Part shown: in pieces, positions 4,442 to 63,725 of the stretch
Layout: each line of letters begins with the position of its first letter
Position numbering within the stretch: position 1 is the first letter of the stretch
Assembly (NCBI GenBank): GCA_049287025.1
Contig: JBAQFA010000022.1
Coordinates: forward strand, 30,225 to 94,224
DNA length: 64,000 nt
From: Candidatus Magasanikiibacteriota bacterium
Lineage (GTDB): Bacteria; Patescibacteriota; Patescibacteriia; Magasanikbacterales; UBA922
Direction: 5' to 3'
Notes under the pieces: model-generated
The model's input: only the letters and a program-made list of their open reading frames with translations
Database searches by the model: none
Told to the model about the DNA's origin: nothing
Made by a program: the position numbers and the translations under genes

Positions 4442-4451
4442 AAAATTTTAA

Positions 4452-42555: not shown

Positions 42556-42690
42556 ATCCCGAATCCTCCGATGAGGGATCCCTTTCCCATGCATTTAACA
42601 AGGGTATTATATATTAATATTGTAAGAAACTTGAAAAGGGATTTCCTCTTGGAGGATTTTCAACCTCATCCTAAAGAATTCGGAATTCAC
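42556..42690. repeat. palindromic element family A copy; 3' arm encodes helicase C-terminus and stop
   Basis: atcccgaatcctccgatgagggatccctttcc ... gaaaagggatttcctc...gaattcggaattcac; helicase ends EFRIL-TAG inside arm. Confidence 0.6.
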
Positions 42691-45600: not shown

Positions 45601-45748
45601 TTTCTGGTTTGGCTAATTTTTGTTCAACTAAATAAGCAATCTTTTGCGTGATTACTGTGGTTTTGCCTGTACCAGCACCCGCTACTATCAATAGTGGTCC
45701 GGATGTGTGTTCTATGGCTTGTTTTTGTTGTTGGTTCAGATTGTACAT
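42671..45748 (-). CDS. UvrD/PcrA-like helicase fused to C-terminal PD-(D/E)XK (Cas4/AddB-type) nuclease
   Basis: AGAGTGKT Walker A; C-terminal Cys cluster C..CQYCDFKEIC; three in-frame repeat insertions. Confidence 0.8.
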   Translation of the reverse strand: MYNLNQQQKQAIEHTSGPLLIVAGAGTGKTTVITQKIAYLVEQKLAKPENILALTFTEKAAGEMVERVDDILDIGYTDLQISTFHAFCQKILEEYGLEIGLPARFKLMTDTDAWLLVKKHLYDFNLDYYRPLGSPMSMIHSLLNHFSKAKDELVSTTEYLEYVENVKMDKDEANIQEKNRQTELANAYHTYNQLLLDNGYLDFGDLIFYTVKLLKDRPNILKALQERFTYILVDEFQDVNWSQYQLIKLLALNPEQSEGSRSSSDKHRDSSALPQNCQLTVVGDDDQSIYSFRGSNVSVIMHFKEDFKNAKEIVLNENYRSAQEILDLSYKSIQNNNPDRLEVKLKIDKKLHNPERSEGSRGSSNKQRDSSSSSTPQNNVIEHIHCQTLDDEVQAVIKKISEIKSKSVESMSWDDFAILVRANSHVEPFIQALEQASIPYEYLASSGLYRQPIVLNCLAFFQLLTHVYDDRAMYRLLRMPAWAIDENDMQKITARAKQKSISYYEVLKRGSEFDISTGGQKIASKILETIHSGMKQARYDRPTAVLYNFLENSDYLTYLTHGENNGDREIIRQINYLRQLLDLIKTFEQITPDCKVLEFVEHFNNIIDSGDGGKIYQPEDTPDSVNIITVHGAKGLEYKYVFVVNLVEERFPTRKKGGNLELPDELVKDNLPNSDFHYEEERRLFYVACTRAKEKLFLTSAEDYGGTRKKKISRFLTELSEALPLQGGVGGGLDKKQILDLKMTSPKPPLVGEELIYETPNKFSFSQISSYERCPYQYKLAHVLKIPMKGSASFSFGNTIHNTLQDFYTKIQELNSVKQASLFGLPVETKPDTGEIKVPSQDELLQMYEKNWAPDWYNSREQREKYFAKGKEILKIFYSSQQNNWTIPVSLEGWFKVKVGDYIVHGRIDRIDKVADGSLEIIDYKTGKAKETLTTEDKQQLLIYQIAAQTLPEYRNIGPVGQLTFYYVNDNLKTSFIGEDKDLEKLQEKILKTINQIKTNNFIATPNKHVCQYCDFKEICEFRIL
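43565..43584. repeat. family B GC palindrome inserted in-frame in helicase
   Basis: ctcccccttgtagggggagag encodes LQGGVGG. Confidence 0.55.
44618..44696. repeat. compact family A element inserted in-frame in helicase
   Basis: tctgaggagtcgaagacgacgaagaatcccg ... gggatccttcgctccgctcaggat. Confidence 0.6.
44921..45000. repeat. second compact family A element in-frame in helicase
   Basis: ttctgaggcaaagccgaagaatcccgg ... gggatccttcgctttgttcaggat. Confidence 0.6.
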
Positions 45749-47425: not shown

Positions 47426-47659
47426 TTACTCTTTATCATCTTCATTTTCGTCTAGATCCCCACTCTCTAGTTCTTCGTCTGTTTCGCTTTCATAGCATTC
47501 ACAACAATCACCACAACCGCCACATTTGGGGCAAAGTTCGTCCTCGCTAAAGGGCATATCACATTTACGACATTCCATAATGTAATTAATTAGATAAGGT
47601 GTCACGCTAGGGACATGACAGGATATACAATTAAAATTTATTGGCAATTGCAACCACAA
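47426..47659 (-). CDS. cysteine-rich small protein (CxxC x4, acidic tail); internal ATG gives 50-aa MECRKC... form
   Basis: 11 Cys incl. CGGCGDCCEC. Confidence 0.4.
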   Translation of the reverse strand: MWLQLPINFNCISCHVPSVTPYLINYIMECRKCDMPFSEDELCPKCGGCGDCCECYESETDEELESGDLDENEDDKE

Positions 47660-47775
47660 CCACCATCACCACAACAAGATTCATCTTCTTTGCAATCACA
47701 GCAAGCCTTGCAACAAGTTTCTTGTTCGCAACCATTTTCCTCGTTTAATTCTACTCCGCATTTTTTACAATTCAT
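47638..47775 (-). CDS. cysteine-rich 45-aa peptide (metallothionein-like composition)
   Basis: MNCKKCGVELNEENGCEQETCCKACCDCKEDESCCGDGGCGCNCQ, 13 Cys, below ORF-track cutoff. Confidence 0.4.
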   Translation of the reverse strand: MNCKKCGVELNEENGCEQETCCKACCDCKEDESCCGDGGCGCNCQ

Positions 47776-47836: not shown

Positions 47837-49141
47837 TTACATCCCCTCTCCTAATTCATCTGGTTTAACATTGGTTTGTTTATATATTTCTCGTTCAAAT
47901 AGGAATATTCCTAGTACGCTAACCAAGACAATAGATAGGAGAATAGATGAAGACAGACTCTCAGTAAAGACATTGTTAAAAATAGCTATGGCTAAAAACG
48001 TCAAACCGATCTCCCCTCTTATTGTCGTGGCTCGAGCAATCAGTATTCCTTCTTTTTTATTTTTATAAAAGAAACGGATGAAACACTTACCTACAAAAGC
48101 CAAAATAACAAACATGATAGCGTACAACCAAGTATGATAATCAAATAAAGATTCTCTAGTCAACATTGTTCCCAAGCTGACCAAAAATCCACCAACAAAA
48201 ATATGCATATAGCCTTCAATTTTTGACCAAATTTCGTTTTTTATTTTATTATCCATTTTGGATAGTATTAGACCAATGCCAAACGCCCCTAAAATTGGTT
48301 CTAGACCAATGGCCGAAGTTAGAGCACAAGCTAAAATTAAAGCTCCAAAAAAGAAACGAGTATAAGATCCAGTACTTGTCGTCACATAGTGTTGATCTAA
48401 ATATTTTACAACTTTGTCTACAAAGTTGAATGACCACATAACAAAGGCGACAAACAAGAATCCGATAATTGATAATGATATTAAGAAAATATCACCAAAT
48501 CCCGCACTACCATATAAAAATTTACCCAAAATTGTCAAAAGCAACATACCAATGATATTGCCAATCAAAGCGATGCTTAAAATTTTATCACCAACTTCGG
48601 TATGGAGTTTGTTACCAGCCTTGAGAGCCGAGACTGAAAGCCCTAGAGATGTAGCAGTAAAAATACCACCAAGGAAGATTGCTGGCAACCAATTAATATC
48701 TAATAAATAAAAACCAACTAAGGAAAATAAAGCTAACTGAACTAATGTGGCAGACACAGCGGATAAAATATTGGAACCAAAATTCTTTTTGAGAATTGCC
48801 AAATCAAAGTATAGTCCAGCTTCAAATAAAATAAAAAATATTCCAGCTAAGCGAGCAATCTCGACTCCTTGGGCATAGGGATCAATGGCGCCAAATAAAG
48901 CCGGACCAATTATTATACCCATAAATATTTTACCAGCCATTGGGGCAATGTTAAAGATTTTGGCCAAACGAGCGCCAAAAGAAGCAAAAATTGCCAAGAA
49001 AGATATATCCAAAAGAATTGGTAAAATAGTACTAATTTCATAGCTATCACTTGCGATTAAGACTGGCCTCAAATAATACAAAATAAAAATCGCAATGACT
49101 GATTCTATAATTACCAAGAATAAACTTTTTAATTTGTCCAT
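47837..49141 (-). CDS. cation:proton antiporter (CPA/Kef-NapA-like)
   Basis: about 12 TM, GIIIGPALFG motif. Confidence 0.55.
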   Translation of the reverse strand: MDKLKSLFLVIIESVIAIFILYYLRPVLIASDSYEISTILPILLDISFLAIFASFGARLAKIFNIAPMAGKIFMGIIIGPALFGAIDPYAQGVEIARLAGIFFILFEAGLYFDLAILKKNFGSNILSAVSATLVQLALFSLVGFYLLDINWLPAIFLGGIFTATSLGLSVSALKAGNKLHTEVGDKILSIALIGNIIGMLLLTILGKFLYGSAGFGDIFLISLSIIGFLFVAFVMWSFNFVDKVVKYLDQHYVTTSTGSYTRFFFGALILACALTSAIGLEPILGAFGIGLILSKMDNKIKNEIWSKIEGYMHIFVGGFLVSLGTMLTRESLFDYHTWLYAIMFVILAFVGKCFIRFFYKNKKEGILIARATTIRGEIGLTFLAIAIFNNVFTESLSSSILLSIVLVSVLGIFLFEREIYKQTNVKPDELGEGM

Positions 49142-49218: not shown

Positions 49219-49244
49219 GATAAAAAATTCCACAAAAGTGGAAT
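49219..49244. terminator. bidirectional terminator aaaaaattccacaaaagtggaattt
   Basis: 8-bp stem with A/T runs; ends Ehr-like operon. Confidence 0.7.
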
Positions 49245-49291
49245 TTAAGATTATTAAAATAGATTAATAAATTTCTAATTCACTCAAACTA

Positions 49292-50860
49292 TTATAAATC
49301 ATTACCAGAATATGATAAATTAAAACTTTTATTAATTAATGGAAAATCAGGTACAATATTACCAATACCTGCATATCCCAGTACAGACCAGTTGACAAAT
49401 GATGGATCACGAGGAAAAACCCTGTCAATCTCCCCTATTGAATTAGTTGTTACAAAATACATTATTTCTCCACGCCAACCTTCTACAGAACTAATGGCCA
49501 AAGAATTTTTTTCTAACTTATTAATTCCTTGACAAACAATTTTGCCCTTTGGCAATTTTTCTAAAGCTTTTTCAATGACCGCTATTGATGAACGTACCTC
49601 TTTCACTCGAACAAAAAATCTAGCGTAAGCATCACCATCTTGTTCAACAGGAACATCTCCAATAGAAAGTTCACTATAAGCTGCATAAGGAAAATCAATA
49701 CGAGTATCACGCGCAACTCCTAAAGCTCGACTCGGAACCCCCACTATTCCATGATCTACAGCAACATACGAAGGTAATTTTCCTGTGCCTTTTAAACGAT
49801 TTAAAAGTGAGACACTGTTTTCGGCAATGGCAATAATTTCAGAAAAATCTTTGTTTATTTTATTTAATTCAAGGGATAAAAATTTAATATTATTTTCATC
49901 TAAATCTTTTTTTACTCCACTAACAGTGTTTACTCCACGCAAAAATCTACTACCAGTTAATTTTTCATTAATCTGCATTACCATTTCTCGTAATCTCGCA
50001 CCATTACTTCCCCCAAAATTAAAACCAGTATCCAACATCATGGCACCAATATCACCAAAATGATTTGCCAATCTTTCTAATTCAGCAAAAATAACTCGTA
50101 AATAATTAGCTCTTTTTGGTACGACAGTATTACTCAGCTGCTCTACGGCCTGACAAAAAGCCAATGAGTGACTAAAAGAACTATCACCAGAAATTTTTTC
50201 TGAGAGTTTTATTTTTTCATCTAAAGATAATTGTTCAAATAATTTTTCACTGCCTTTGTGAACATATCCTAGACGTGATTCTAACAACAAAATTTCTTCG
50301 CCAGCTACACTAAAACGAAAATGACCTGGCTCAATAATACCAGCATGAATCGGACCAACAGGAATTTCGTAAACACCCTCGCCTTCTACTTTTTGAAATT
50401 TGTATAAGTCATTATGTGCATTGGCTGGCCTGTTATTCCAATCAAAATCTTTTCGCAAAGGAAACATGTTTGTTGGCCAATTTTCATGCAAAATTACAGG
50501 TCTTTCATCAGGATGTCCAATTGGCTTTAGACCAAAAAAAGTTTTAATTCTTCGTTCATAAATCCAGGCCTCATGCATAGTAGGAGCCAAGGCTGGGAAT
50601 TCTTCAGAATTTTTTAATACTATAAATGGAATAATAAAACATTTTTCTTCTGGTGATGCAAATACATACCATATTTTGTAACACCCATTTTCTTTTCGTT
50701 CATCTGTGGCAGTAATTAATTTTAAAGAAAGCTTTTCATTATCATGTAAGTCGTGGGCTAATTTGATAATTTCTGTCGTTGGTACTTCAAAAATTACCGT
50801 ATTATCAAAAGATGAAACTTTGGTATCTTTAGTAATATATTTTGTTAATATTTGGTTCAT
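49292..50860 (-). CDS. NuoC-NuoD-like fused large subunit lacking NiFe-ligand cysteines
   Basis: GPIHAGIIEPGHFRF..GEEIL; site aligned to RICGVCxxSH reads KISGDSSFSHSLA; C-terminus SFNLSYSGNDL vs DPCxSCTDR. Confidence 0.7.
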   Translation of the reverse strand: MNQILTKYITKDTKVSSFDNTVIFEVPTTEIIKLAHDLHDNEKLSLKLITATDERKENGCYKIWYVFASPEEKCFIIPFIVLKNSEEFPALAPTMHEAWIYERRIKTFFGLKPIGHPDERPVILHENWPTNMFPLRKDFDWNNRPANAHNDLYKFQKVEGEGVYEIPVGPIHAGIIEPGHFRFSVAGEEILLLESRLGYVHKGSEKLFEQLSLDEKIKLSEKISGDSSFSHSLAFCQAVEQLSNTVVPKRANYLRVIFAELERLANHFGDIGAMMLDTGFNFGGSNGARLREMVMQINEKLTGSRFLRGVNTVSGVKKDLDENNIKFLSLELNKINKDFSEIIAIAENSVSLLNRLKGTGKLPSYVAVDHGIVGVPSRALGVARDTRIDFPYAAYSELSIGDVPVEQDGDAYARFFVRVKEVRSSIAVIEKALEKLPKGKIVCQGINKLEKNSLAISSVEGWRGEIMYFVTTNSIGEIDRVFPRDPSFVNWSVLGYAGIGNIVPDFPLINKSFNLSYSGNDL

Positions 50861-50864
50861 AATA

Positions 50865-52304
50865 TTAATAAGTCAATGACACCATATTTATTAATTTTGA
50901 CAAAAATGGCGGGAGATAAAAACTTAGACAAAAAACTATAACTAATAATACCAATGGTGAAACAAGCAACCAACCACTAACTTCACCAACTGCTACATCA
51001 TCAGTTTTCTTTCCAAAAAACATTTTTGTGACATGTTTAAGAAATCCAACAAAAACTATCGTCGTAAAGATAATAACTAAAATAGTTACAATCGGATTAG
51101 TTTTTATACCAACAGATAAAATTAACATTTTGGAAAAAAATATACCAAACGGTGGCATTCCAGTTAGAATTAAAAAGCCAATTATAAATATTATACTGGT
51201 GAAAGGAACAACACTTAGCGCACCTTTAATTCTATTAATTTTTGATGAATTATATTTCAACAATAAATTACCAGAAGAAAAAAAGAGAATTGCTTTTATA
51301 CATGAGTGGTAAATTAAGTGAATAGTGGCAGCAAAACCACCCAAACCACCCAAACCAAAACCAAGTATAATTAACCCCGCATTCTCAATGCTTGAATATG
51401 CTAACAATCTTTTATAATTCTTGGCATTAAACATAATTAACGCTGGAATACCGATTGATAACATACCAAAAATAATTAACAAATTTTTACTAAATAAATT
51501 ACCCACAGCAATATCTGTAATAATCTTAAATTTCATTACAATAACAAAAGCTACTGGTAATAAGGCACCTGACAATAGCGCCCCAAGAGGTGCTGGTGCT
51601 TTACTGTAAGCATCTGGTTTCCAAGTGTGCATTGGCACCAATCCAATTTTGGTTCCATAACCAATGAGAATAAAAATAAAGGCAATCTTCCCTAACAGTG
51701 GATCAAGATGAATGGCATTATCTGCTAAAATTTGCCAGTTAATTAATCCAGTATTAGACAAATTAACTGAAGTAAAATATAAAAGGGTGCCAAAAAATCC
51801 CAAAATTAAACCAATGGAATTTATAATTAAATATTTCCACGCTCCTTCTATTGCCGAAGGCTTATTGTAAAAACTAATTAAAAAAGCAGTTGATAAAGTT
51901 GTGGCTTCAATTGAGATCCAGGCAAAAATTGGACTACTAGCTGTAATAGCCAAAAACATGGCCAAAAGAAAAATGTTTAGCAAAGTAAAAAATTGTTTGA
52001 CTCGATGAAATCCAATAATATTTTTTGCTGTTTCTTGATGAAAATATTGAATTGAGTAAATAGTAGTGACAAAACCAATTAGTCCAACAATTAGCATGGT
52101 AATTGCACTAAGAGCATCAACATAAAATATTCCGTATTGCATGTAGGATCCAATTTCTGCCACCTTAATAGCTACTATAATTGATCCAGTCAAGGTCACA
52201 CCTGAAGATAGTACGGAACAGGCTTCAACGCTACTTCGGTGTTTTATAAAAAAACAAATGGCAGAAGCTATAATAAGTGATATTAAAATGATAATAATTT
52301 CCAT
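50865..52304 (-). CDS. NuoN/NuoM/MrpD-like antiporter subunit
   Basis: HTWKPDAYSKAPAPLGALLSG motif, 14 TM. Confidence 0.7.
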   Translation of the reverse strand: MEIIIILISLIIASAICFFIKHRSSVEACSVLSSGVTLTGSIIVAIKVAEIGSYMQYGIFYVDALSAITMLIVGLIGFVTTIYSIQYFHQETAKNIIGFHRVKQFFTLLNIFLLAMFLAITASSPIFAWISIEATTLSTAFLISFYNKPSAIEGAWKYLIINSIGLILGFFGTLLYFTSVNLSNTGLINWQILADNAIHLDPLLGKIAFIFILIGYGTKIGLVPMHTWKPDAYSKAPAPLGALLSGALLPVAFVIVMKFKIITDIAVGNLFSKNLLIIFGMLSIGIPALIMFNAKNYKRLLAYSSIENAGLIILGFGLGGLGGFAATIHLIYHSCIKAILFFSSGNLLLKYNSSKINRIKGALSVVPFTSIIFIIGFLILTGMPPFGIFFSKMLILSVGIKTNPIVTILVIIFTTIVFVGFLKHVTKMFFGKKTDDVAVGEVSGWLLVSPLVLLVIVFCLSFYLPPFLSKLINMVSLTY

Positions 52305-52308
52305 AGAA

Positions 52309-52956
52309 TTAGTCTTTTAAATATTTCATCTCAGTCACGTCTAAAGAACCAAAATGTTTTTGTATCATACCAATAAATACTGTTGCAATAATAATCCAGA
52401 CGAAGATATCAAAAACAATTCCGATTTGTAAAATTGGTGATTGTTCTAAACCAGCAAAAAAACCAAAAGCCACAATACTATTTTCCAACGAAAGTACGGC
52501 AATAATTTGTGAAAGCGCTACTTTACAATTTACAATCAAAAACAATGAGATAAATATCGCTGATAATGCCAAATATAAAAGATGTTCGTTGGCAGGAATA
52601 ATATGAGCGAGTGATACAAATAATTTTGAGTGAGCAAAAGCAGTCAAAATTGTCACGGAAATAAGAGTAAGTGGCGTATTGACGTAAGTCGTAACTAAAA
52701 ATTTTAACTTGAATTTGTTAATTAAATTGATAAAGAAAGCCGGAGCTAAAATGACCTTTACCACCAGAACCAAACACGCTACAAAAAGTAATGACACTTT
52801 TCTTGTTTCCAAAAAAGAATTAATCAATAATAAAACAATGATTAGTGACTGCAGACTGTAAAGTACAGCCGTGGTAATATTTTTTTTGACAATATGTAAA
52901 GAGACTATTGTTATAAAAAATAATGTTAACAAAATTTGATTATAAAATGAGTTCAT
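52309..52956 (-). CDS. HyfE/EchA-like small membrane subunit
   Basis: 215-aa polytopic protein inside the cluster. Confidence 0.4.
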   Translation of the reverse strand: MNSFYNQILLTLFFITIVSLHIVKKNITTAVLYSLQSLIIVLLLINSFLETRKVSLLFVACLVLVVKVILAPAFFINLINKFKLKFLVTTYVNTPLTLISVTILTAFAHSKLFVSLAHIIPANEHLLYLALSAIFISLFLIVNCKVALSQIIAVLSLENSIVAFGFFAGLEQSPILQIGIVFDIFVWIIIATVFIGMIQKHFGSLDVTEMKYLKD

Positions 52957-53885
52957 AAATTACTTATTAATCCAAGCGCAATAATATTTAAGACAAAAGA
53001 AATAATCAATAAATCTGGCAAGCGAAAAAATCTATACTTTGCAATACTTGATTCAAGAATAGCAATTGCAAGATAAAAGATGGATATTTTTATTGCAAAA
53101 ATTATTAAACCTAAAAATAATGCTTTTAAATCTGCACTCTGAGCAATTCCCCAAGGGAAAAATAAATTCGCTCCTAGTGATATAAAAATTAACAGCTTAT
53201 TGGCAGAAGCCCATTCCATCAACGCTAATTTTTTTCCAGAATATTCCAATATCATGGCTTCATGAATCATGGTCAATTCCAAATGCGTGGCGGGATTATC
53301 AAACGGAAACCTGGCTGTTTCGGCCAATAACACTATAAAAAATCCAAAAAAGGCCAACAAAATTGATGAAAATGACTGACTATATGGAGAGACAATGTGA
53401 TTTGAAATATTAAATAAGTTTGTAGTATTGGCAACAATACTAATAGTCAATAAAGAAAAAATTAATCCCCCTTCTGCTAGAGCTGATATAGTCATTTCGC
53501 GACTTGATCCAAATCCACCAAATGCACTCCCACTATCCATACCTGATAACGCCAAAAAAAATGTTCCAATGGAGAGTAAATAGACAATTACCAATATATC
53601 ACTCGTAATGTTGTTAGAGAATAAACTTCCAAAAAGTGGAATACTAGCACCGACAATTATCGTCACGGTAAAAACAATAATCGGAGCGTAATGAAAAATC
53701 CAAGAAGCATCTTTACTAACAATCTCGTCTTTATGAAAAAGTTTGTATAAATCCCAATAAGGCTGAAAAATACTCGCTCCTTGTCGATTTTGCAGTTTGG
53801 CTTTTAATTTTTTTACCAAACCAACACCCAACGGCGAGAGTACTGGAACAAAAATACATTGAATTATCCAAATTACAATCATCAT
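52953..53885 (-). CDS. NuoH/HycD-like membrane subunit
   Basis: RFPFDNPATHLELTMIHEAMILEYSG motif. Confidence 0.7.
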   Translation of the reverse strand: MMIVIWIIQCIFVPVLSPLGVGLVKKLKAKLQNRQGASIFQPYWDLYKLFHKDEIVSKDASWIFHYAPIIVFTVTIIVGASIPLFGSLFSNNITSDILVIVYLLSIGTFFLALSGMDSGSAFGGFGSSREMTISALAEGGLIFSLLTISIVANTTNLFNISNHIVSPYSQSFSSILLAFFGFFIVLLAETARFPFDNPATHLELTMIHEAMILEYSGKKLALMEWASANKLLIFISLGANLFFPWGIAQSADLKALFLGLIIFAIKISIFYLAIAILESSIAKYRFFRLPDLLIISFVLNIIALGLISNL

Positions 53886-53888
53886 AAA

Positions 53889-55937
53889 TTAGTTGGCTAC
53901 AATTAAGGTAATAATCAAAGCAATAAATATATATAATATATAGGCATTGACGTTTCCACTCTGAATTTTTTTAAGTTTCTCTGATAATGTTTCAATAAAT
54001 TTTTGCATGGGTTCATATAGATGACTCCGATACATATCATTAATACTCAAAGTAACCCCTCTAAACTTTGGGAGATACCGACTTTTTTCGTCATGATATT
54101 CAACTTCATGCTGTAAACTTGGTTTTAAAACACCTCTAAATATGGTAATAATTGACCGAGAAAATCCAGTAGCCGTTATTTCCATTCTGGAGTTCAAATC
54201 AACACCGCAGTCCCAAGTAGCACCCGAACTAATATCTTGTTTTCTATACACTAAATATTTTACACTTAATAAAACAACCATAAATACGATTAACAATAAC
54301 AAAAGTAAAATTGGAGCCGAAACAAAAGAAAAGCTTCCAACACTTATACCTTGATCAGTGGATGTTTTTAGGACGGAAGAAACTGAACTTAAAACCTTCA
54401 AACTATTTCCGATGCCAAGTAAGATAGATGATATATAGCCAGAAAATACACCAAACAACAATGAACACAAGGCTAACATTCCCATACCAAAACGTAATGT
54501 CAATGATGATTCCTTGGCGTGCTTGACTTCTTCACTTCTGGGCCGAGCTAAAAAGGTCGCTCCAAAAGCCTTGACAAAACAGGCCAAGGCCAACCCACCA
54601 GTAAAAGCGAGAGCACCAGCCGAAACCATGAAAATCCATTTAGCAGAAAAATCCAATGCTATTATCCCCTGGAACAAGGACTGAAAAGTAAGCCATTCAC
54701 TGAAAAAACCATTAAACGGTGGCAGGGCCGAAATGGCCATGGAGCCAACCAAGAAAAACATGGCTGTGTAAGGCATAAATTTGATCAATCCACCATATTC
54801 TTCTATGTTTCTAGTGTGGGTGGCGTTGATTACTGATCCTGCTCCCAAAAATAATAACGACTTGAATGTGGCATGATTTAGCGTATGAAAAAGAGCCGCC
54901 ACCAAACCAAGAATCGCTAACGCTGGCATATTCAGTGAAGTAAAAGTCAAGGCACTTCCTAAACCGAGTAAAATAATTCCAATATTTTCAATACTATGAT
55001 AAGCCAGTAATCTTTTGATATCATGTTCGGTAAGTGCATACAACACTCCGAGTAACGAAGACACGGCGCCAACGATAAGAAGAGTAAGACCCCACCAGCT
55101 CGGGACAGGCTGTAAAATGTCCAAAAATAATCTAATCATCATGTAAATACCAGTCTTTATCATTACCCCAGACATTAATCCTGACACGTGGGAAGGAGCA
55201 GCTGGATGAGCGCTTGGTAACCAAATATGAAAAGGGATTACGCCAGCCTTGGTACCAAACCCGATCATGGCTAAAATAAAAATAATATTTTTAATTGATA
55301 ATGGAATCAAACCTACTTCTAATTTGATGTTTTCAAAATCAAAAGAACCGGTAAATTTGTAAAACAATATAAAAGCCAAAATAATAAACGCTGTGCCAAT
55401 GTGAGTCATAACTAGATACAAAAATCCAGCCTTGACATTGCTTTCATCGTGGCGATCATAAATGACAAGAAAAAATGAAGCCACTGACATAATTTCCCAA
55501 GCAACCAGAAAAAATAACTCATTACTAGCTGTAACGACCATCAACATACCAGCAATAAACAAGTTATAAAAAAAACCAAGTGCACCAATATTATATTTTT
55601 GATAATAATGTTTTACATAACCAACACCATAGACCGAACAGAATAAAGTGATAAGTGAAATTACAAATACAAAAAATGCGGACAATTTATCAATATGAAA
55701 AGATATTGAAAATAAAGGAAAAATAGATGTACCAAGCTGATAAGTTAGTTCGGACGAAACTGTTAACAACAAAAATGACAACCCTATCCCCCACAGTGAT
55801 CCCGCAATAGCAAAAACGTTGCCCCAAACGTTGGCAATTTTATCGCTCTTTTGAAAAACTAATGAACCAACCGCCCCCACAAAAAAGAATAGCAATAAAA
55901 TATTGAAACCTAATGATGACGTAAGAAAGCTAATCAT
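53889..55937 (-). CDS. NuoL/MrpA-like antiporter subunit
   Basis: HIWLPSAHPAAPSHVSGLMSGVMIKTGIY motif. Confidence 0.75.
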   Translation of the reverse strand: MISFLTSSLGFNILLLFFFVGAVGSLVFQKSDKIANVWGNVFAIAGSLWGIGLSFLLLTVSSELTYQLGTSIFPLFSISFHIDKLSAFFVFVISLITLFCSVYGVGYVKHYYQKYNIGALGFFYNLFIAGMLMVVTASNELFFLVAWEIMSVASFFLVIYDRHDESNVKAGFLYLVMTHIGTAFIILAFILFYKFTGSFDFENIKLEVGLIPLSIKNIIFILAMIGFGTKAGVIPFHIWLPSAHPAAPSHVSGLMSGVMIKTGIYMMIRLFLDILQPVPSWWGLTLLIVGAVSSLLGVLYALTEHDIKRLLAYHSIENIGIILLGLGSALTFTSLNMPALAILGLVAALFHTLNHATFKSLLFLGAGSVINATHTRNIEEYGGLIKFMPYTAMFFLVGSMAISALPPFNGFFSEWLTFQSLFQGIIALDFSAKWIFMVSAGALAFTGGLALACFVKAFGATFLARPRSEEVKHAKESSLTLRFGMGMLALCSLLFGVFSGYISSILLGIGNSLKVLSSVSSVLKTSTDQGISVGSFSFVSAPILLLLLLIVFMVVLLSVKYLVYRKQDISSGATWDCGVDLNSRMEITATGFSRSIITIFRGVLKPSLQHEVEYHDEKSRYLPKFRGVTLSINDMYRSHLYEPMQKFIETLSEKLKKIQSGNVNAYILYIFIALIITLIVAN

Positions 55938-55938
55938 A

Positions 55939-56481
55939 TTATTTTTTGGCTACAGATTTAGCGTCCAGTATTTCTAACAAATTTAATAAATGACAAATTA
56001 TCGTTTTCGGAGATGGTGGATTGCCTGGAATACAATAATCTACTGGTATTATATTGTCTACTCCATCAAAAGTGGCATAGGAACCCTTATATATTCCTCC
56101 ATTAATTGCATCATCGCCAACAGCTATAATAATTTTGGGGTTAGGGGTGGCATTGTAGGCTCTTCTTAAAGCCTCAGACATATTTCGCGTGACAGGTCCA
56201 GTGACCATCAACATATCAGCGTGCTTTGGAGACGCCACAAAATGAATACCAAAACGCTCCACATCATAAAAGGCATTGGAGAGTGCAACTAACTCCTGCT
56301 CGCAGGCGTTGTCCGAACCTGCGTCAACTTGTCTAATCGCCAACGACCCCTTAAATAATTTTTTTACATTATCTTGAATTTTTTTTCCTACAACATCCAA
56401 ATCTATTTTTTCACAATCAAAGTCACTTAGAGGAATAATATTATTGGAAGTAGAAAAAATTTTTAACAAAAGTTTCAGCAT
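55939..56481 (-). CDS. NuoB-like small subunit with N2-cluster cysteines replaced
   Basis: DAGSDNACE, GDDAINGG, IPGNPPSP in place of CCxxE, GxCxxxGG, GCPPRP. Confidence 0.7.
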   Translation of the reverse strand: MLKLLLKIFSTSNNIIPLSDFDCEKIDLDVVGKKIQDNVKKLFKGSLAIRQVDAGSDNACEQELVALSNAFYDVERFGIHFVASPKHADMLMVTGPVTRNMSEALRRAYNATPNPKIIIAVGDDAINGGIYKGSYATFDGVDNIIPVDYCIPGNPPSPKTIICHLLNLLEILDAKSVAKK

Positions 56482-56527
56482 ATTTTTAAAAGTATTTCAA
56501 TGTAATAAAAATATAACCATGCACACC

Positions 56528-56556
56528 ATTTTATATTATTTTTATTTTCTTGTCAA
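56528..56556 (-). promoter_or_regulatory. promoter TTGACA-17-TAAAAT of Ehr-like operon
   Basis: tgtcaa 56551-56556 and atttta 56528-56533 on plus strand; 13-bp IR aaaaaacattcac/gtgaatgtttttt flanks region 56560-56632. Confidence 0.5.
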
Positions 56557-56680: not shown

Positions 56681-56893
56681 TTAGCCTGGGACGACAGAGA
56701 AGACCAACGTGTTGTCAGGGAAGTAAACCCTCTTCTGTCGAATTCCCTCGTCCAACATCACGGTGGCGATGGCGTTGTACTGATAGTGTTCATTGACAAC
56801 CACTAACAGTACTTTGGTGTAGAGCGTTCCCTCTGGGAGTTTCCCCAGACGAAACTTGCCGTTGACCGACAACTGACCAAAAGTCATATTCAT
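56681..56893 (-). CDS. hypothetical 70-aa protein, compositionally foreign (high G+C)
   Basis: high-G+C ORF; promoter TTGACA-16-TAGAAT; palindrome ccatccagtgggatgg after stop. Confidence 0.4.
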   Translation of the reverse strand: MNMTFGQLSVNGKFRLGKLPEGTLYTKVLLVVVNEHYQYNAIATVMLDEGIRQKRVYFPDNTLVFSVVPG

Positions 56894-57002: not shown

Positions 57003-57449
57003 TTATTTCTCAGTTTCTACATTATGACTAATTGTTATTTCTTCAATTACAATTTTCATTAATTTATCCAGTCTTGCGGATCCTTCTGCTCTTTCTTCTT
57101 TTCTAGTTGAAGGTAGTCGTTGCAATTCACTCTTACGTCTATTGATCTCGACCATAACTTGTAAAAACTTTTCTTTTGTGTCAATTTTTTTGATGCTATC
57201 AGCAAAATCTATCCATTCTTTAACACCACCACTAATACCCTCTTCTTTGGTAAAGGCGGCTAATATATTAGAAAAATCGGTGTGGTTTTTAATATTACCA
57301 TTATCAAATCCTTCCAAAATCATGTTATATTTAGCTTCCAAACCAATAGCTTCTCCTAAATTATGGCTTCCCTCTGCCAATTCCCTGTCATCTTTTGCTT
57401 GTATTAAATCTTCTAAGAATCGAGGTGTATCCCCATTTGGTTCACTCAT
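57003..57449 (-). CDS. hypothetical protein
   Basis: ORF only. Confidence 0.45.
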   Translation of the reverse strand: MSEPNGDTPRFLEDLIQAKDDRELAEGSHNLGEAIGLEAKYNMILEGFDNGNIKNHTDFSNILAAFTKEEGISGGVKEWIDFADSIKKIDTKEKFLQVMVEINRRKSELQRLPSTRKEERAEGSARLDKLMKIVIEEITISHNVETEK

Positions 57450-57590: not shown

Positions 57591-58013
57591 TTATTTCACG
57601 TTTTTGTATTTCTTCGCCACTCTTACCCGATTCATTTCTCTATCAATCACAGCTTGCAAACGAGCAAAGTTAACATCCTCACCAGTTTTGGCTTTGGTCA
57701 TTTCTTCTTCGGCTCTAATTCTAGCTTGTTCAGCGCGATCAATATCAATCGCATCAGCTCTTTCTATATTATCAGCCAAGATAATTAATTCATTATTACC
57801 TTTTATTTCCAAGAAACCACCAGAGACAGCAAAAGGATGTTCACCATCTTTATCAACAATTTTTAATTCTCCAGCCTTAAGCACAGACACAAGTGGAATG
57901 TGATTTGGTAAAACTGTTATCTCACCAGACATAGTTGGAATAGAAACCTGAAAAATTTCATTTTCATAAACAACTTTTTCTGGAGTAGCGATTTTGAATT
58001 TGATTGTATTCAT
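57591..58013 (-). CDS. atpC: ATP synthase epsilon subunit
   Basis: position and size, beta-sandwich plus helical C-term. Confidence 0.8.
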   Translation of the reverse strand: MNTIKFKIATPEKVVYENEIFQVSIPTMSGEITVLPNHIPLVSVLKAGELKIVDKDGEHPFAVSGGFLEIKGNNELIILADNIERADAIDIDRAEQARIRAEEEMTKAKTGEDVNFARLQAVIDREMNRVRVAKKYKNVK

Positions 58014-58124
58014 AATCTCGAGCGAAGCGAGAGATCCCTTTTCTTTGGGTTTAACTTCGCTTTATTTTAAAAATTTTTTAATGTTTTGGAAAGGGATTCC
58101 TCATCCTTCGGGATTCGGAATGAA
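58014..58124. repeat. family A palindromic element (intercistronic atpD-atpC)
   Basis: about 90% identical to 62689-62795 copy; abuts atpD TAG. Confidence 0.7.
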
Positions 58125-59616
<1,492 letters not shown>

Positions 59617-60585
59617 TTATTCTAACGCTGCAGCACCACCAGCAATCTCGGCAATTTCTTGGGTAATACCAGCTTGGCGGGCTTTGTTATAAGTTAAGTT
59701 CAATTCATCTATCATATCTTCGGCAGAATCACTAGCATTTCTCATCGCCATCATACGGGCGCTGTGTTCACTGGCCGATGATTCCAAAGCTGCTTGAAAA
59801 ATCTGTGTTTCCACTAGTCTTGGTAAAATTGTTTTTAAAACATCAGTTGTGTTTGGTTCAAACAGGTAGGTATCAGTAATCAAAGTTTTATTATATTTTT
59901 GTTCATCTGTCATCAAGTTGCCATTACCAGCCCCAAGATTATTCATCATTTTTTCCAAATCATGTTCGGAAATTGGTAAAACTTGTCTCAATTTTGCATT
60001 CTGGACAATCGCTGATTGATAATCAGTATAAGCGACTACTACTTTGTCATATTTCTTAGCTTCATATTCCCCCACAATCATTTTGGCAATTGGTAAAATG
60101 TCATTTAAATTTGGAGTATCAGAAATATCACTATATGAGGCAATTAAATTAAAGCCGTTTTTCTTGGCAAAATCAGCGCCTTTTTTTCCAATACCAATGA
60201 CATCAATTTCAATATTTTCATTTGGTTCAATGTGTCCGTTTTCTACTCTGTGTCGGCTAATATTTTTTGGATCCTTTAATTGTTCAGTAGTTTTTCTAAT
60301 AATATTCGCATTAAAGCTACCACACAGACCACGGTTAGATGTTACTAAAACCACTAATAGTTTTTTTACCGGCCTCACTTCTAATAAAGGTAATTTTACT
60401 TCCTGTACTTTTGACAAACTAACCAAAAGATCCCAGGCCATTTTGGCATAAGTGCGAGTATTAACAGCTGCCTCAGTTGCTTTTCTCATTTTAGCAGCAG
60501 CAACCATTTCCATGGCTTTCGTAATCTTCTTCGTATTGCCAACGGATTTGATGCGACGTTTAATTGCTTTGGTATTTACGGCCAT
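59617..60585 (-). CDS. atpG: ATP synthase gamma subunit
   Basis: N/C-terminal coiled-coil helices. Confidence 0.85.
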   Translation of the reverse strand: MAVNTKAIKRRIKSVGNTKKITKAMEMVAAAKMRKATEAAVNTRTYAKMAWDLLVSLSKVQEVKLPLLEVRPVKKLLVVLVTSNRGLCGSFNANIIRKTTEQLKDPKNISRHRVENGHIEPNENIEIDVIGIGKKGADFAKKNGFNLIASYSDISDTPNLNDILPIAKMIVGEYEAKKYDKVVVAYTDYQSAIVQNAKLRQVLPISEHDLEKMMNNLGAGNGNLMTDEQKYNKTLITDTYLFEPNTTDVLKTILPRLVETQIFQAALESSASEHSARMMAMRNASDSAEDMIDELNLTYNKARQAGITQEIAEIAGGAAALE

Positions 60586-60589
60586 ACAA

Positions 60590-60716
60590 ATTCATTCCGA
60601 GAGTAGCGAGGAATCTTTTTTACCTCTTACTTCTAGAAATAATAAATTAGTAATTTTAAATAATACTTTTTAGGAAAGATTCCTCACCCTCGCTTGAGCT
60701 CGAGTTCGGAATGAAC
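60590..60716. repeat. family A palindromic element (atpA-atpG)
   Basis: cattccgagagtagcgaggaatctttt ... aaagattcctcaccctcgcttgagctcgagttcggaatg; abuts atpA TAG. Confidence 0.7.
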
Positions 60717-62203
60717 TAACGACTAAATTCGTTGCAAGCTTCTTTCAATTCACTTTCAACACTATCATCCCAATCACCTTTTGCCAACTTATCTAACAAA
60801 GTTCGTTTTGATTTGTTCATAAATTCAATCATTTTCTTTTCTGCTTCAGCAACTTCTTTTACAGCAAATTTATCAAAATAACCATTGGACACAGCATAGA
60901 TAACAGCGATCTGTTCTTCTACGGCCATTGGACTATATTGTGGTTGTTTTAATAATTCTGTCATGCGTTGACCTAGATCAATTTGTCTCTTGGTATCAGC
61001 ATCCAAATCACTAGCAAACTGAGCAAAGGCTTCTAATTCACGGAATTGTGCCATGGCAAGTTTAATCTTGCCAGCCACTTTTTTCATCGCTTTCAATTGA
61101 GCCGCTCCACCTACACGAGACACTGAGATACCAATATTTAGAGCTGGTCTAATACCTTTGTAAAACAAATCTGTTTCCAAGAAAATCTGACCATCAGTAA
61201 TAGAAATAACATTGGTTGGGATATAGGCAGTCACATCACCAGCTTGAGTTTCAATAATTGGTAGAGCAGTAATAGAACCACCACCATTTTCTTTACTTAG
61301 TTTGCAAGCGCGTTCCAAAAGACGTGAGTGTAAATAAAATACATCACCTGGATAAGCCTCGCGCCCTGGTGGACGGCGAAGTAATAGAGAAATTTCACGA
61401 TAGGCCCAAGCTTGTTTGGTAAGATCATCATATACGACTAAAACATCTTCACCTTTGTCAGCAAAATATTCGGCCATGGCCACACCAGCGTATGGAGCAA
61501 TAAATGACATAGAAGCTGGATCTGATGCACCAGCTACTACCACAGTAGTATATTCCATGGCGCCGGTTTCTTTTAATTTGGCTACGATACGAGCAACTTT
61601 GGATTCTTTTTGACCAACGGCTACATAAACACATTTCATGTTTTGACCTTTTTGATTGATAATGGTATCAATCGCAATCGCAGTTTTACCAGTTTGTCTG
61701 TCGCCGATAATAAGTTCACGTTGACCACGACCAATTGGAATCATCGCATCAATCGCTTTGATACCAGTTTGGACTGGTTGGTGAACTGGATGACGTTTCA
61801 TAACACCAGGCGCAATCTTTTCTACTGGATAAAATTCTTTAGTATTAATTTCACCTTTACCATCAATCTCTTGACCTAAGGCATTTACCACTCTACCAAC
61901 CATTTGTTCTCCGACTGGTACGGACAAAATTCTACCAGTACGTTTGACTGTATCCCCTTCTTTGATCGCTTTATAATCCCCCAAGATCATGGCACCAACA
62001 GTCTCTTCTTCCAAGTTTAGAGCTACACCAAAAACTCCGCCAGTAAATTCTAGCATTTCTTGATATTGACATTTGGTTAAGCCAGACATGCGAGCAATAC
62101 CATCACCAACTTGAATAACTGTACCAACTTCTTCAGTTTGAACAGTTTTTTCAAAGTCAGCAATGTGCTTTTTTAATTCTTCAACGATTGCGTTTGTAGA
62201 CAT
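60716..62203 (-). CDS. atpA: ATP synthase alpha subunit
   Basis: GDRQTGKT P-loop. Confidence 0.95.
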
Positions 62204-62295
62204 AGAATAATAATTATATTTTTATATTAAATTAAAATTTTGATCACTGATCACTGTTTACTTTTATTGTTAATAATCAATGATCTGTGATCAAT

Positions 62296-62688
62296 TTATT
62301 GTAAGTGTTTACTAAGATTAATTAGCTGTGTTTTTAAACTCGCATCCAAAATTTTATCTTCTGTTTTTACTGCCACTCCACCAAGTAAATCTGTATCAAT
62401 AGTTTCAATCGCTTCTACCTGATTACCGAAAACTGATTTAATTTTTTCCAAAGTATTTTTGTCTAATTTTCTCGCTGACTTAACTTCTATTTCTATTACG
62501 CCAGCTTGTTTTTTGGCGTATTTTTCAAATTCTTTAATAATATTGTCAGACTGTTTTAATTTTTGATTGGCAACTAAAATAGCGACAAACTTTTTTAAAG
62601 CATTGTTTAATTCTCCACCTTTAAGCTCTTTTGTACTATCATACAGAGCTTCAGCGTATTGTTTGTTTGAAATTTTCTTTTTTGACAT
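62296..62688 (-). CDS. atpH: ATP synthase delta (OSCP) subunit, short
   Basis: position; C-terminal LLGG pattern. Confidence 0.65.
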   Translation of the reverse strand: MSKKKISNKQYAEALYDSTKELKGGELNNALKKFVAILVANQKLKQSDNIIKEFEKYAKKQAGVIEIEVKSARKLDKNTLEKIKSVFGNQVEAIETIDTDLLGGVAVKTEDKILDASLKTQLINLSKHLQ

Positions 62689-62795
62689 AATCTCGAGCGA
62701 AGCGAGAGATCCCTTTTCATTGGGTTTAACTTCGCTTTATTTTAAATGTTGTTTAATGTGTTGGAAAGGGATTCCTCACTCCGTTCGGAATGAAC
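62689..62795. repeat. family A palindromic element (atpF-atpH); 3' arm encodes last 7 codons and TGA of atpF
   Basis: ttcggaatgaacg rc encodes IRSFRTE-stop. Confidence 0.7.
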
Positions 62796-63375
62796 GAATT
62801 GTTTCTTCAATCAAAGTGACATCTTTTTTGTCATCCAATTTTTCATTCATTATTTTTTCCACAGCCGCAATAATAAGATTAACAGTTTCTTTCTTAATTT
62901 CAGTCATCATACTTTCTTTTTCTATTTGGATATTTCGTTTGGCCTGATCAACCAACATCTCAATTTCTTTCTTGGCTTTTTCTTTCATGTCAACAGACAA
63001 TTTTTCTGCCTCAGTGTGTGATTTTTCAATTATTTTATTGGCTTCCACTTTCGCTTGATCCAATTTTTCTTGAAATTTCACTTCACTCATTTGCAAATTA
63101 GTTTCCACTGCCTTAGCATTATCAATGCTGTCGTCAATTATTTTTTTACGTTCTTCCATGGTCTTCGTCAATGGTTTTAAAATCAAAAACCAAACAATCG
63201 CACCAACAATGGCAAAGTTTAATAATTGAAAACCAAATAATTGAGCATTGATACCAAGTGAGGCTGCAACACCCTCATTTTTTGGAGCAACGGTAGTGTG
63301 TTCTGCGGTGGTAGCTTCAACATTTGTTTCTTCTACAGCTTCAGAAGAGGCGTAAGCATTTTCTATTAAAAACAT
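62776..63375 (-). CDS. atpF: ATP synthase b subunit
   Basis: N-terminal TM plus long helix. Confidence 0.7.
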   Translation of the reverse strand: MFLIENAYASSEAVEETNVEATTAEHTTVAPKNEGVAASLGINAQLFGFQLLNFAIVGAIVWFLILKPLTKTMEERKKIIDDSIDNAKAVETNLQMSEVKFQEKLDQAKVEANKIIEKSHTEAEKLSVDMKEKAKKEIEMLVDQAKRNIQIEKESMMTEIKKETVNLIIAAVEKIMNEKLDDKKDVTLIEETIRSFRTE

Positions 63376-63503
63376 ATTTTTTATTTAATAATTATATTAG
63401 TTTATCTCCATTTATCTCTATACTATTTCATAAAATTGAGATAAATAGAGATAATGAAATAATCTGATTACGCCGGATCATATTTGACCCAGCGTCTATC
63501 AAT

Positions 63504-63725
63504 TTATTTCAATGTAAATACAACTACAAGGGCGTAGATGGCGATAGCTTCAGCAAAAGCTGCACCAAGCAACATTGGGACGAACAATTTTCCAGCAGAT
63601 TCTGGGTTACGTCCGATTGATTCCATAGCTTTGCCTACCAATTTACCGATAGCAAGAGCTGGAAACATACCACCGATTGCCATGGTGAAGGCTTTGGCCA
63701 AGACCACGATAGATGCGTGTTCCAT
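63504..63725 (-). CDS. atpE: ATP synthase c subunit
   Basis: two TM hairpin, conserved carboxylate region. Confidence 0.85.
   Translation of the reverse strand: MEHASIVVLAKAFTMAIGGMFPALAIGKLVGKAMESIGRNPESAGKLFVPMLLGAAFAEAIAIYALVVVFTLK

Follow-up and report, generated by a model that had tools for sequence, protein, structure and literature searches.

A six-gene Ehr-type operon without hydrogenase or proximal iron-sulfur cluster sites near the ATP synthase genes of a Candidatus Magasanikiibacteriota bacterium

The energy-converting-hydrogenase-related (Ehr) complexes are the closest described relatives of the system treated here, a six-gene minus-strand operon located in a 64,000-nucleotide stretch of contig JBAQFA010000022.1 (positions 30,225 to 94,224, hereafter the window, or 64-kb window) from a Candidatus Magasanikiibacteriota bacterium. 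The Ehr of Geobacter sulfurreducens (GSU0739-0745, EhrA/B/C/D/L/S) has the same repertoire as this operon, that is, NuoL-, NuoH-, HyfE- and NuoN-like subunits, a large subunit and a small subunit. Genomes of the Candidate Phyla Radiation (CPR) carry a monophyletic clade of Ehr large subunits devoid of metal-binding cysteines, which was placed within Ehr and whose members "likely cannot interact with H2"; the small subunit, the other subunits and the genomic context of the CPR Ehr were not discussed in that work (Jaffe et al. 2020, PMC7304191). By its subunit set, its large subunit without these cysteines and its position in a sequence tree, the locus is assigned to the Ehr group and to this published CPR clade. 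Its host is indeed a CPR bacterium, as the preliminary description of this DNA had supposed, since the large subunit is 100% identical to a protein of a Candidatus Magasanikiibacteriota metagenome-assembled genome (MAG) of the Patescibacteria/Parcubacteria group. The same description had called the operon unusual in a CPR-like genome, which is overstated: CPR Ehr large subunits without the cysteines are already known, and the operon is common in metagenomes.

What is new is a small subunit (EhrS) without iron-sulfur (FeS) cluster and without a ferredoxin-like domain, an operon in which ehrS is the first gene, and a frequent linkage to the atp genes; no publication describing these features was found, in a search whose reach did not extend to the founding Ehr papers (Coppi 2005; Marreiros 2013). 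The earlier assignment of the operon to the Ehr class holds for the Hyf/Ehr subunit set and for the loss of the NiFe cysteines. However, the locus is more extreme than the class, since the other Ehr clades examined keep the [4Fe-4S] cysteines of EhrS and usually a ferredoxin-like domain. For instance, in the Terriglobia/Bryobacterales, Alphaproteobacteria and Deltaproteobacteria sampled, EhrS bears four proximal-cluster cysteines and an N-terminal ferredoxin-like domain and its gene comes after ehrL, whereas this locus starts with ehrS, whose product has lost the ferredoxin domain and has other residues in place of the cluster ligands.

The six open reading frames (ORFs) were found exactly where they had been described, spanning positions 49292-56481 of the window (Table 1). 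They are tightly packed, with neighbours spaced by 1, 3, 4 and 4 bp and one 4-bp overlap. Profile searches of Pfam and NCBIfam matched all six products to complex-I/hydrogenase-4 families and, judging from the profile scores, these matches are far above chance. The operon encodes a complete Hyf/Ehr-type complex: the membrane part comprises the NuoH-like anchor together with one NuoK-like and two antiporter-like subunits, and the NuoB-like and NuoCD-like proteins make up the peripheral arm. The proposal that it has its own promoter and terminator (49219-49244) agrees with a promoter-like site, recognized by its match to the consensus, about 45 nt upstream of the ehrS start codon, and with a hairpin followed by a U tract after ehrL (approximately 49246-49225; -10.3 kcal/mol, z = -3.1 against shuffled sequences by RNA folding). 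The latter is absent from the list of signals returned by a consensus scan.

The best sequence or fold matches for five of the six subunits belong to Escherichia coli hydrogenase-4, or formate hydrogenlyase-2 (FHL-2; HyfA-J), and to FHL-1 (HycB-G; structure 7z0s). The large subunit, EhrL, matches the Complex1_30kDa (6e-17) and Complex1_49kDa (4e-40) profiles as well as HycE of 7z0s (7.6e-77), and the residue-level alignment with the latter covers the metal sites. In this alignment the CGIC motif of HycE becomes SGDS and DPCYSC becomes NLSYSG; HycE residues C241, C244, C531 and C534 correspond to S224, S227, S516 and G519 of EhrL. Alignment with the FHL subunits therefore bears out the cysteine substitutions that had been read from the DNA, with S/S at the N-terminal site and SYSG at the C-terminal one. 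The same ligand substitutions are present in 120 homologues and in each CPR-type locus in which the motif region is present.

The former NiFe pocket is strongly conserved. At least 98% conservation among the 120 homologues was found at 149 of the 522 positions of EhrL, including the four substituted ligand sites, the hydrogenase-type Glu177, His231 and the Ehr-specific Cys236. The pocket residues H172, E177, H180, S224, D226, S227, S228, H231, C236, S516 and Y517 are all conserved at this level and are identical in the FeS-containing sister clade described below. EhrL shares with Hyf/Hyc both His231 and the hydrogenase-type Glu within the EPGHF loop, and the Ehr-wide signature residues E221, F235, C236 and F513 are all present in EhrL. 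An AlphaFold2 (AF2) model of the isolated subunit, with a predicted TM-score (pTM) of 0.86, has HycE (7z0s_E) as its best fold match (TM-score 0.85). Segments 153-195 and 502-522 were left unplaced by AF2 although they are among the most conserved of the protein, as would be expected for interface or pocket elements that need partner subunits.

Cys236 (motif AFCQAVEQ) is invariant in the Ehr of the CPR type, Terriglobia, Alpha- and Deltaproteobacteria and Actinobacteria. The equivalent position is occupied by Thr or Val in HycE, HyfG and NuoCD.

EhrS aligns with E. coli HycG (9e-30), and the HycG motifs CGGCNGCE, GACG and GCPP read AGSDNACE, GDDA and GNPP in EhrS (alignment to 7z0s). The ligand positions of the proximal or N2 cluster, as aligned to HycG, MbhJ and NDUFS7, are D57, C60, D124 and N154, so that three of the four cysteines are replaced (by D, D and N), as had been proposed. 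The remaining cysteine, C60, is A or P in other family members, some of which have no cysteine at any ligand site. Across loci and representatives at 50% identity the four positions read DCDD (common), DCDN, TCDD, TADD, DADD, SEGD, TEGD, SEAN, DVEN and others; at least two ligands are missing, with varied replacements, in about 25 of the 150 nearest EhrS representatives at 50% identity. The small-subunit cluster cysteines are kept in 59 loci and absent in about 33 CPR-type loci. The EhrS of the CPR type is 172-183 aa long and has neither a Fer4 domain nor a four-cysteine cluster, and, from the alignments, the replacements of the cluster ligands in this lineage are mostly Asp, Thr, Ser and Asn. 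A new fixed metal site created by the Asp-for-Cys replacements was considered, favoured at one time by the common D-C-D-D pattern and by an actinobacterial clade that independently gained Asp at two of these same positions, but it was downgraded because the four positions vary widely across loci.

Genes that could supply other redox modules were looked for in the window. Searches by tblastn with E. coli NuoE/F/G/I, HyfA/H/J, HycB/F/H/I and HypA/B gave no matches in the 64 kb, in agreement with the reported absence of NuoI-, NuoE-, NuoF- and NuoG-like genes. Neither a NuoEFG module nor a hydrogenase maturation module, which would have turned the locus into an ordinary complex, is found in the window; this includes the maturation genes for HypA and HypB and for the endopeptidase HycI. 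A six-frame scan of the window for CxxCxxCxxxC gave a single occurrence, in an unrelated 50-aa ORF, and Pfam annotation of the remaining window ORFs revealed housekeeping genes and no respiratory genes.

The features that define the better known relatives can be compared with this result. The group 4 [NiFe]-hydrogenases have two CxxC pairs, a proximal four-cysteine cluster and a subunit with two [4Fe-4S] clusters (HycF/HyfH/EchF/MbhN), and all of them are absent here. With respect to Hyf/Hyc, the locus lacks the NiFe ligands and the EhrS cluster, and HyfA, HyfH, HyfD, HyfJ, formate dehydrogenase (FDH), Hyp or HycI are not encoded in the window. Complex I (Nuo) shares with the operon the L-shaped core (NuoB, C, D, H, K-like and L/M/N-like subunits), but the locus has no N2 cluster, no NuoA, E, F, G, I or J, hence neither NuoI nor an electron-input module, and no quinone-binding His/Tyr, the ligands His38 and Tyr87 of Nqo4 being replaced by Ile176 and Gly225 in EhrL. 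An ordinary Nuo or Hyf/Mbh complex was therefore rejected, on the grounds of the replaced NiFe ligands, the replacement of three of the four cluster ligands and the absence of NuoE/F/G/I, HyfA/H and Hyp from the window. Since there are no ligands for NiFe or [4Fe-4S] and no ferredoxin-like domain or subunit, the complex is neither a hydrogenase nor an FeS-wired oxidoreductase.

A cryptic redox enzyme, in which an oxidoreduction that uses a separately encoded donor module or a non-FeS cofactor in the pocket would still be coupled to ion translocation, is a quite improbable alternative. It would fit the fact that the FeS-containing sister clade has the same pocket, which presumably once accepted electrons, as well as the position of one non-CPR copy of the operon between an NrfA-like cytochrome c552 gene and carbon monoxide dehydrogenase/acetyl-CoA synthase (CODH/ACS) genes, and Matheus Carnevali et al. 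(2019) put forward a complex of FDH with Ehr in other Ehr clades. However, the EhrS cluster ligands are gone, certain members having no cysteine there, no NuoI- or HyfH-like subunit or domain was found by tblastn of the window and comparison of EhrS domains, other residues stand at the quinone-ligand positions, and the more than 50 loci compared have no redox partner in common. According to published genomic surveys, moreover, CPR genomes generally lack quinones and electron-transport chains, which also counts against such an enzyme.

Regarding the membrane arm, the HyfB-like subunit matches the NCBIfam hydrogenase-4 subunit B model with 676 bits, above its cut-off, and HycC with 2e-87. In 15 CPR loci this subunit has an invariant Glu in transmembrane helix (TM) 5 (WEIMS), invariant Lys residues in TM7 (GTKAG) and TM8 (MIKTG), an HxxxHxxxK motif in TM11 and a Glu in TM12 (GFFSE). 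Hydrogenase-4 subunit F is the top NCBIfam match of the HyfF-like subunit. Its family shows no variation at the TM5 Glu, TM7 Lys and TM11 Lys and next to none at the TM12 Lys; the TM8 Lys is missing, as in E. coli HyfF, the residue being N in the family and P in the window. The NuoH-like subunit matches HycD (1e-39), and its TM5-6 loop (AETxRFPFD...ELT...EYSG), AETARFPFDNPATHLELTMIHEAMILEYSG, hardly varies and has three inserted residues when compared with Hyf/Hyc/Nuo.

Homologues of the HyfE-like subunit match PF00420 weakly, a PDB search with the subunit gave no match, and Glu158 of its LENS motif aligns with NuoK Glu36 by hhalign, although weakly (E = 0.066). The similarity between HyfE and NuoK has been stated elsewhere (PMC13645896). 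Taken together, the alignments indicate that the proton-transfer residues of the membrane arm are intact, and the arm looks fully functional.

The Mrp antiporters also share MrpA/D-type subunits, with the same Glu/Lys/His proton-transfer residues, and a NuoK/MrpC-like subunit with this complex, and they contain no redox cofactors. However, Mrp itself has no NuoH-, NuoB- or NuoD-like subunits, while the Ehr operon has no MrpB/E/F/G homologues. Mrp is a system of seven subunits (MrpA-G) without a peripheral arm, and the presence of NuoH-, NuoB- and NuoCD-like subunits sets the Ehr complex apart from it. Thus, the complex is not an Mrp member, although it may work in an Mrp-like way.

Selection on the six subunits was compared by dividing the divergence of each one by that of the membrane core (HyfB-like plus NuoH-like subunits) among loci within one superclade. 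The ratio of EhrL was 1.02 in 29 loci without the cluster cysteines and also 1.02 in 24 loci containing them; the equal values imply that selection on EhrL was in no way relaxed once the electron wire had gone. The NuoB domain of EhrS gave 0.85 in the loci without cysteines and 0.66 in those with them. Selection on EhrS has therefore been relaxed modestly, and this subunit is still the most conserved of the six proteins. Identities across CPR lineages are 60-78% for EhrS, 59-74% for the HyfB-like, 57-73% for the HyfC-like, 44-67% for the HyfE-like and 51-69% for the HyfF-like subunits, and 57-72% for EhrL, while in the same genome pairs the ATP synthase subunits are 53-63% (alpha), 37-40% (gamma) and 32-56% (epsilon) identical. 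The peripheral arm is not vestigial. With the ligands gone, neither H2 chemistry nor FeS-mediated electron transfer is possible. The term non-catalytic, used in the preliminary description, was nevertheless an assumption, as the arm is as constrained as in FeS-containing relatives.

These values bear on the idea that the operon is an evolutionary relic, a decaying or structural remnant of a hydrogenase or Ehr without any energy coupling. All cofactor sites have been lost and ehrS is split in one copy, but the six ORFs are intact and translationally coupled, gene order is invariant with 44-78% identity in eight or more named CPR lineages as well as in some bacteria outside the CPR, the key membrane residues are invariant, hundreds of metagenomic copies exist and the constraint on EhrL is not relaxed. 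A relic is thus very improbable.

The same values are relevant to the main alternative to the reading favoured below. According to it, a small molecule or ion is bound in the pocket that took the place of the NiFe site, and the proton gradient is coupled through the membrane arm to a step without redox chemistry, for example hydration/dehydration, binding/release or vectorial transport. There are precedents built on complex-I-type subunits, namely the CO2-hydrating modules DAB and NDH-1MS/CupA. The conservation of the pocket residues and their identity in the sister clade, the invariant Ehr-specific Cys236, the persistence of EhrS as the most conserved subunit and the unplaced segments 153-195 and 502-522, expected of an inter-subunit pocket, are in line with this proposal, and the unchanged relative rate of EhrL after the loss of the electron wire favours it at least as much as a gate. 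However, nothing like a catalytic metal site (for example, a Zn-type His/Cys triad) can be recognised in the pocket, the neighbourhood has no conserved gene for a partner enzyme or a transporter, and no candidate substrate can be named. The ligand replacements in EhrS (D/T/S, C/A/E/V, D/G/A/E and D/N) vary too, against a new fixed metal site there. This alternative is rather unlikely.

The reading that we favour, with a confidence that falls a little short of even, is that of a redox-independent ion translocator, either cation/H+ antiporter-like or a gated H+ path, working on a proton gradient built by the ATPase, with Mrp as its functional analogue. The complex would have no energy input of its own and would thus be a secondary device. 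In the proposed mechanism the ATPase would hydrolyse ATP derived from fermentation and thereby build a proton gradient, which the Ehr complex would use or tune as a secondary ion translocator; the conserved former active-site pocket and the interface loops could serve as a conformational or protonation gate. Redox-independent Na+/H+ antiport by deactive complex I, reportedly described by Roberts and Hirst in 2012, would be a precedent for ion exchange without electron flow. No conserved partner gene is needed, the operon being self-sufficient across more than 50 loci, and the sodium:solute symporter family (SSF) gene of the window implies that the cell uses a Na+ gradient, which supports this reading slightly.

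Several points weigh against a redox-independent translocator. No transport activity has been shown for any Ehr, whose role is called unknown in the literature, and the MrpB/E/F/G-type subunits, which are associated with the Na+ path in Mrp and Mbh, are absent, so that the sequence offers no direct support for the antiport of a second ion. A mere gate or cap predicts some relaxation of constraint; EhrL shows none, a result that is equally or more compatible with a role in ligand binding or catalysis. Approximately three quarters of the loci are not beside atp genes, and the cell already encodes a CPA2 antiporter next door.

A further proposal, in which the cofactor-free but fully constrained arm does something other than electron transfer, is somewhat unlikely: the gradient kept up by the co-encoded ATP synthase would be coupled, in the former NiFe pocket, to the binding of a ligand or to a reaction without redox chemistry, or else the complex would be a ligand-gated ion translocator. 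If it were true, it would represent an energy-coupling mode not yet described for the superfamily, and the complex would offer a natural "redox-dead" model of a peripheral arm that drives a membrane arm. How events in the peripheral arm are coupled to ion movement in the membrane arm is a long-standing question in complex I and its hydrogenase relatives. This widespread and strongly conserved natural variant keeps the NuoB/NuoD/NuoH interface, the E-channel residues and the antiporter-like subunits and has no electron-transfer chain; with it, coupling of a conformational or electrostatic kind could be told apart from redox chemistry. The variant also concerns the bioenergetics of CPR bacteria (Patescibacteria), ultra-small fermenters without a respiratory chain.

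The distribution of the operon was followed in two samples, a scan of one genome per species and a separate scan of metagenomes. The former gave 23 close loci, 57-72% identical, in Gracilibacteria, Saccharibacteria, Nomurabacteria, Peregrinibacteria, Staskawiczbacteria, Vogelbacteria, Azambacteria and other Patescibacteria, and the latter 33 more of the same type; the metagenomic copies of the CPR-type Ehr number in the hundreds. The synteny survey that had been suggested shows that operon order is kept across relatives, the order S-B-C-E-F-L (ehrS, the HyfB-, HyfC-, HyfE- and HyfF-like genes, and ehrL) being invariant across CPR-type loci. No neighbouring gene is consistently adjacent across the more than 50 loci compared; an AddA-like gene recurs in 4 loci and a family of 210 aa in 3, neither with an evident link to Ehr. 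The same operon, with identical motifs and 64-67% identity, is also present in contigs that are not CPR-like: in a "Firestonebacteria" MAG, where it has the position between NrfA-like and CODH/ACS genes mentioned above, beside Fib_succ_major and Por_Secre_tail genes, and beside a Porin_O_P gene. Its occurrence in such unrelated contexts indicates a self-contained and horizontally mobile module.

In a 290-kb contig with Fibrobacter-like neighbours (L084, positions 4284-4842), ehrS is split into ORFs of 109 and 85 aa and the rest of the operon is intact. This is either a frameshift due to a sequencing error or a pseudogenised small subunit.

The nearest outgroup, 42-47% identical, consists of Terriglobia/Bryobacterales MAGs and unassigned metagenome contigs. 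Its EhrL has the same signature as the CPR type (VGPxHAGIIEPGHF, SGD[ST][ST]xxH and N[LG]SYSG), but its EhrS, of 273-298 aa, carries in its N-terminal part a ferredoxin-like domain (CP ... CxxCxxC; Pfam Fer4), which is followed by a NuoB domain where all four cluster cysteines are present. Also, ehrS comes after ehrL in the Terriglobia clade and first in the CPR-type operon. The N-terminal residues of both EhrS types are homologous (MFKILxKT vs MLKLLLKI), so that the CPR type arose by internal loss of the ferredoxin-like domain together with ligand replacement. In a neighbour-joining tree of large subunits, constructed without bootstrap values, the CPR type is sister to this FeS-containing clade, and EhrL falls among the Ehr-like sequences of Terriglobia, Alphaproteobacteria, Actinobacteria and Deltaproteobacteria and is separate from HycE/HyfG and NuoCD. 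These sequence comparisons show the CPR type as a descendant of a redox-capable Ehr whose EhrS bore ferredoxin-like and N2-type clusters.

Other clades have lost ligands in different ways. In Actinomycetes/Acidimicrobiales MAGs (L064, L068 and L070) the N2-type cysteines were, according to the same tree, lost independently (DGSEE, GSDA, GSPP), and EhrS keeps four cysteines (CP + CxxCxxC) in its N-terminal ferredoxin-like domain; this actinobacterial clade thus retains a cluster for electron entry that is not followed by a proximal one. In the alphaproteobacterial loci of Stellaceae, Methylovirgula, Acetobacteraceae and Hyphomicrobiales MAGs (L033-L058), the large subunits have neither of the NiFe CxxC pairs and read AERVSGVGSFAH and GLTVAGCD, and the small subunits retain their cysteines. 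In a 2025-26 preprint, a cluster of Methylocystis that looks similar (motif AARVS) was called a "group 4f [NiFe]-hydrogenase"; low pH induced it strongly, and no H2 evolution was detected. Clusters of this kind may be Ehr-type systems and not hydrogenases.

The operon had been described as lying directly downstream of the F1Fo genes. The F1Fo operon is indeed its upstream neighbour, but two ORFs and a separate promoter lie between them: a 148-aa ORF (57003-57449) and an orphan 68-aa ORF (56681-56887). An Rfam search between the atp and ehr genes (E <= 1) gave sub-threshold, chance-level matches and no RNA element. The linkage to atp genes recurs in several arrangements. The Ehr operon follows atpC with a gap of 3 bp between atpC and ehrS in L018 and within about 1 kb in L014, L093, L094, L096 and L102, it is inserted between atpG and atpD in L019, and in L086 and L020 it is either convergent with the atp genes or preceded by a divergent atpC. 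Among loci flanked by 3 kb or more of sequence, atp genes are adjacent in 9 of 39 loci without the cluster cysteines and in 0 of 59 loci with them (Fisher p = 1.3e-4, an optimistic value because the loci are not phylogenetically independent). Such varied arrangements argue for a linkage that has been established repeatedly or is actively maintained.

The c subunit of the window reads AFAEAIAIY, and all six adjacent c subunits have the pattern A-F-[AV]-E-A-x-[AG]-[IL], without the Gln/Ser/Thr residues that, from the work on the I. tartaricus c-ring, we take to be the Na+-site motif. The adjacent ATPase is thus predicted to be H+-coupled. The recurrent association of Ehr with an H+-type F1Fo suggests a two-component system for membrane potential and ion homeostasis. 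A Na+-coupled ATP synthase was also considered as the partner and was rejected, since none of the six adjacent c subunits has the Na+-site residues.

Compared with the window, one of the linked loci (L093, Ga0210057_1003878) has atp proteins that are 66-87% identical and Ehr proteins that are 53-66% identical. This suggests that the Ehr operon was exchanged independently of the atp genes and yet landed at the same position.

The orphan 68-aa ORF between both operons (minus strand) is richer in GC (0.50) than the flanking DNA (0.26-0.30). It is accompanied by a promoter-like site of its own (56951-56924) and by a strong hairpin at approximately 56673-56640 (-23.6 kcal/mol). Among 5.8 billion proteins it matches only the identical entry of the same MAG, and it may represent either a foreign insertion or an element that does not code for protein.

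Table 1. Positions in the window of the Ehr operon, its putative expression signals and two neighbouring features.
Feature	Positions	Strand	Basis
Promoter-like site of the operon, TTGACA-17-TAAAAT	56528..56556	-	Consensus scan, 11/12 matches
ehrS, NuoB/HyfI/HycG-like small subunit, 180 aa	55939..56481	-	PF01058 (Oxidored_q6/NuoB), 8e-26
HyfB/HycC/NuoL-like antiporter-like subunit, 682 aa	53889..55937	-	NCBIfam hydrogenase-4 subunit B; Proton_antipo_M 4e-60
HyfC/HycD/NuoH-like subunit, membrane anchor of the peripheral arm, 310 aa	52953..53885	-	PF00146 (NADHdh/NuoH), 7e-47
HyfE-like membrane subunit, 215 aa, NuoK-like C-terminal half	52309..52956	-	NCBIfam HyfE NF008556, 2e-12
HyfF/NuoN-like antiporter-like subunit, 479 aa	50865..52304	-	PF00361 (Proton_antipo_M), 4e-42
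ehrL, fused NuoC+NuoD/HyfG/HycE-like large subunit, 522 aa	49292..50860	-	PF00329 + PF00346
Intrinsic-terminator-like hairpin (9-bp stem, 4-nt loop) and U tract after ehrL	49219..49246	-	Sequence, RNA fold
F1Fo genes atpE (c, 63504-63725), atpF, atpH, atpA, atpG, atpD, atpC (57591-58013); not part of the Ehr operon	57591..63725	-	Pfam
CPA2-type monovalent cation/H+ antiporter, 434 aa, own promoter-like site	47837..49141	-	PF00999 8e-36, TIGR00932

The remaining genes of the window include those for tRNA synthetases, MreB/C, a Mur ligase, a penicillin-binding protein, ClpB, an Ldh_2 dehydrogenase and the SSF Na+:solute symporter. The CPA2 antiporter gene located after the Ehr operon was considered as a conserved partner of Ehr, but this was rejected because it is missing from the other 23 CPR-type loci. 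A gene for an AddA-like UvrD-helicase/PD-(D/E)XK nuclease (42671-45748, minus strand) is present within a few kb downstream of the Ehr operon in 4 of 24 CPR-type loci, namely this one, L011, L014 and L021. This recurrence is probably residual synteny, with no obvious functional link.

Two tiny, acidic and Cys-rich ORFs of 45 and 50 aa (47638-47775 and 47426-47578, minus strand) are located between a GNAT gene and the CPA2 gene. Both are annotated as genes in the NCBI record and, as the example MNCKKCGVELNEENGCEQETCCKACCDCKEDESCCGDGGCGCNCQ illustrates, they look like metallothioneins or precursors of ribosomally synthesized and post-translationally modified peptides (RiPPs). At the other end of the window, on the plus strand, a thiamine pyrophosphate (TPP) riboswitch (454-553, 67.8 bits) is followed by the genes for thiamin pyrophosphokinase (576-1247) and the SSF Na+:solute symporter (1341-2744). 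This unit (454-2744) is probably devoted to riboswitch-controlled thiamine salvage and uptake.

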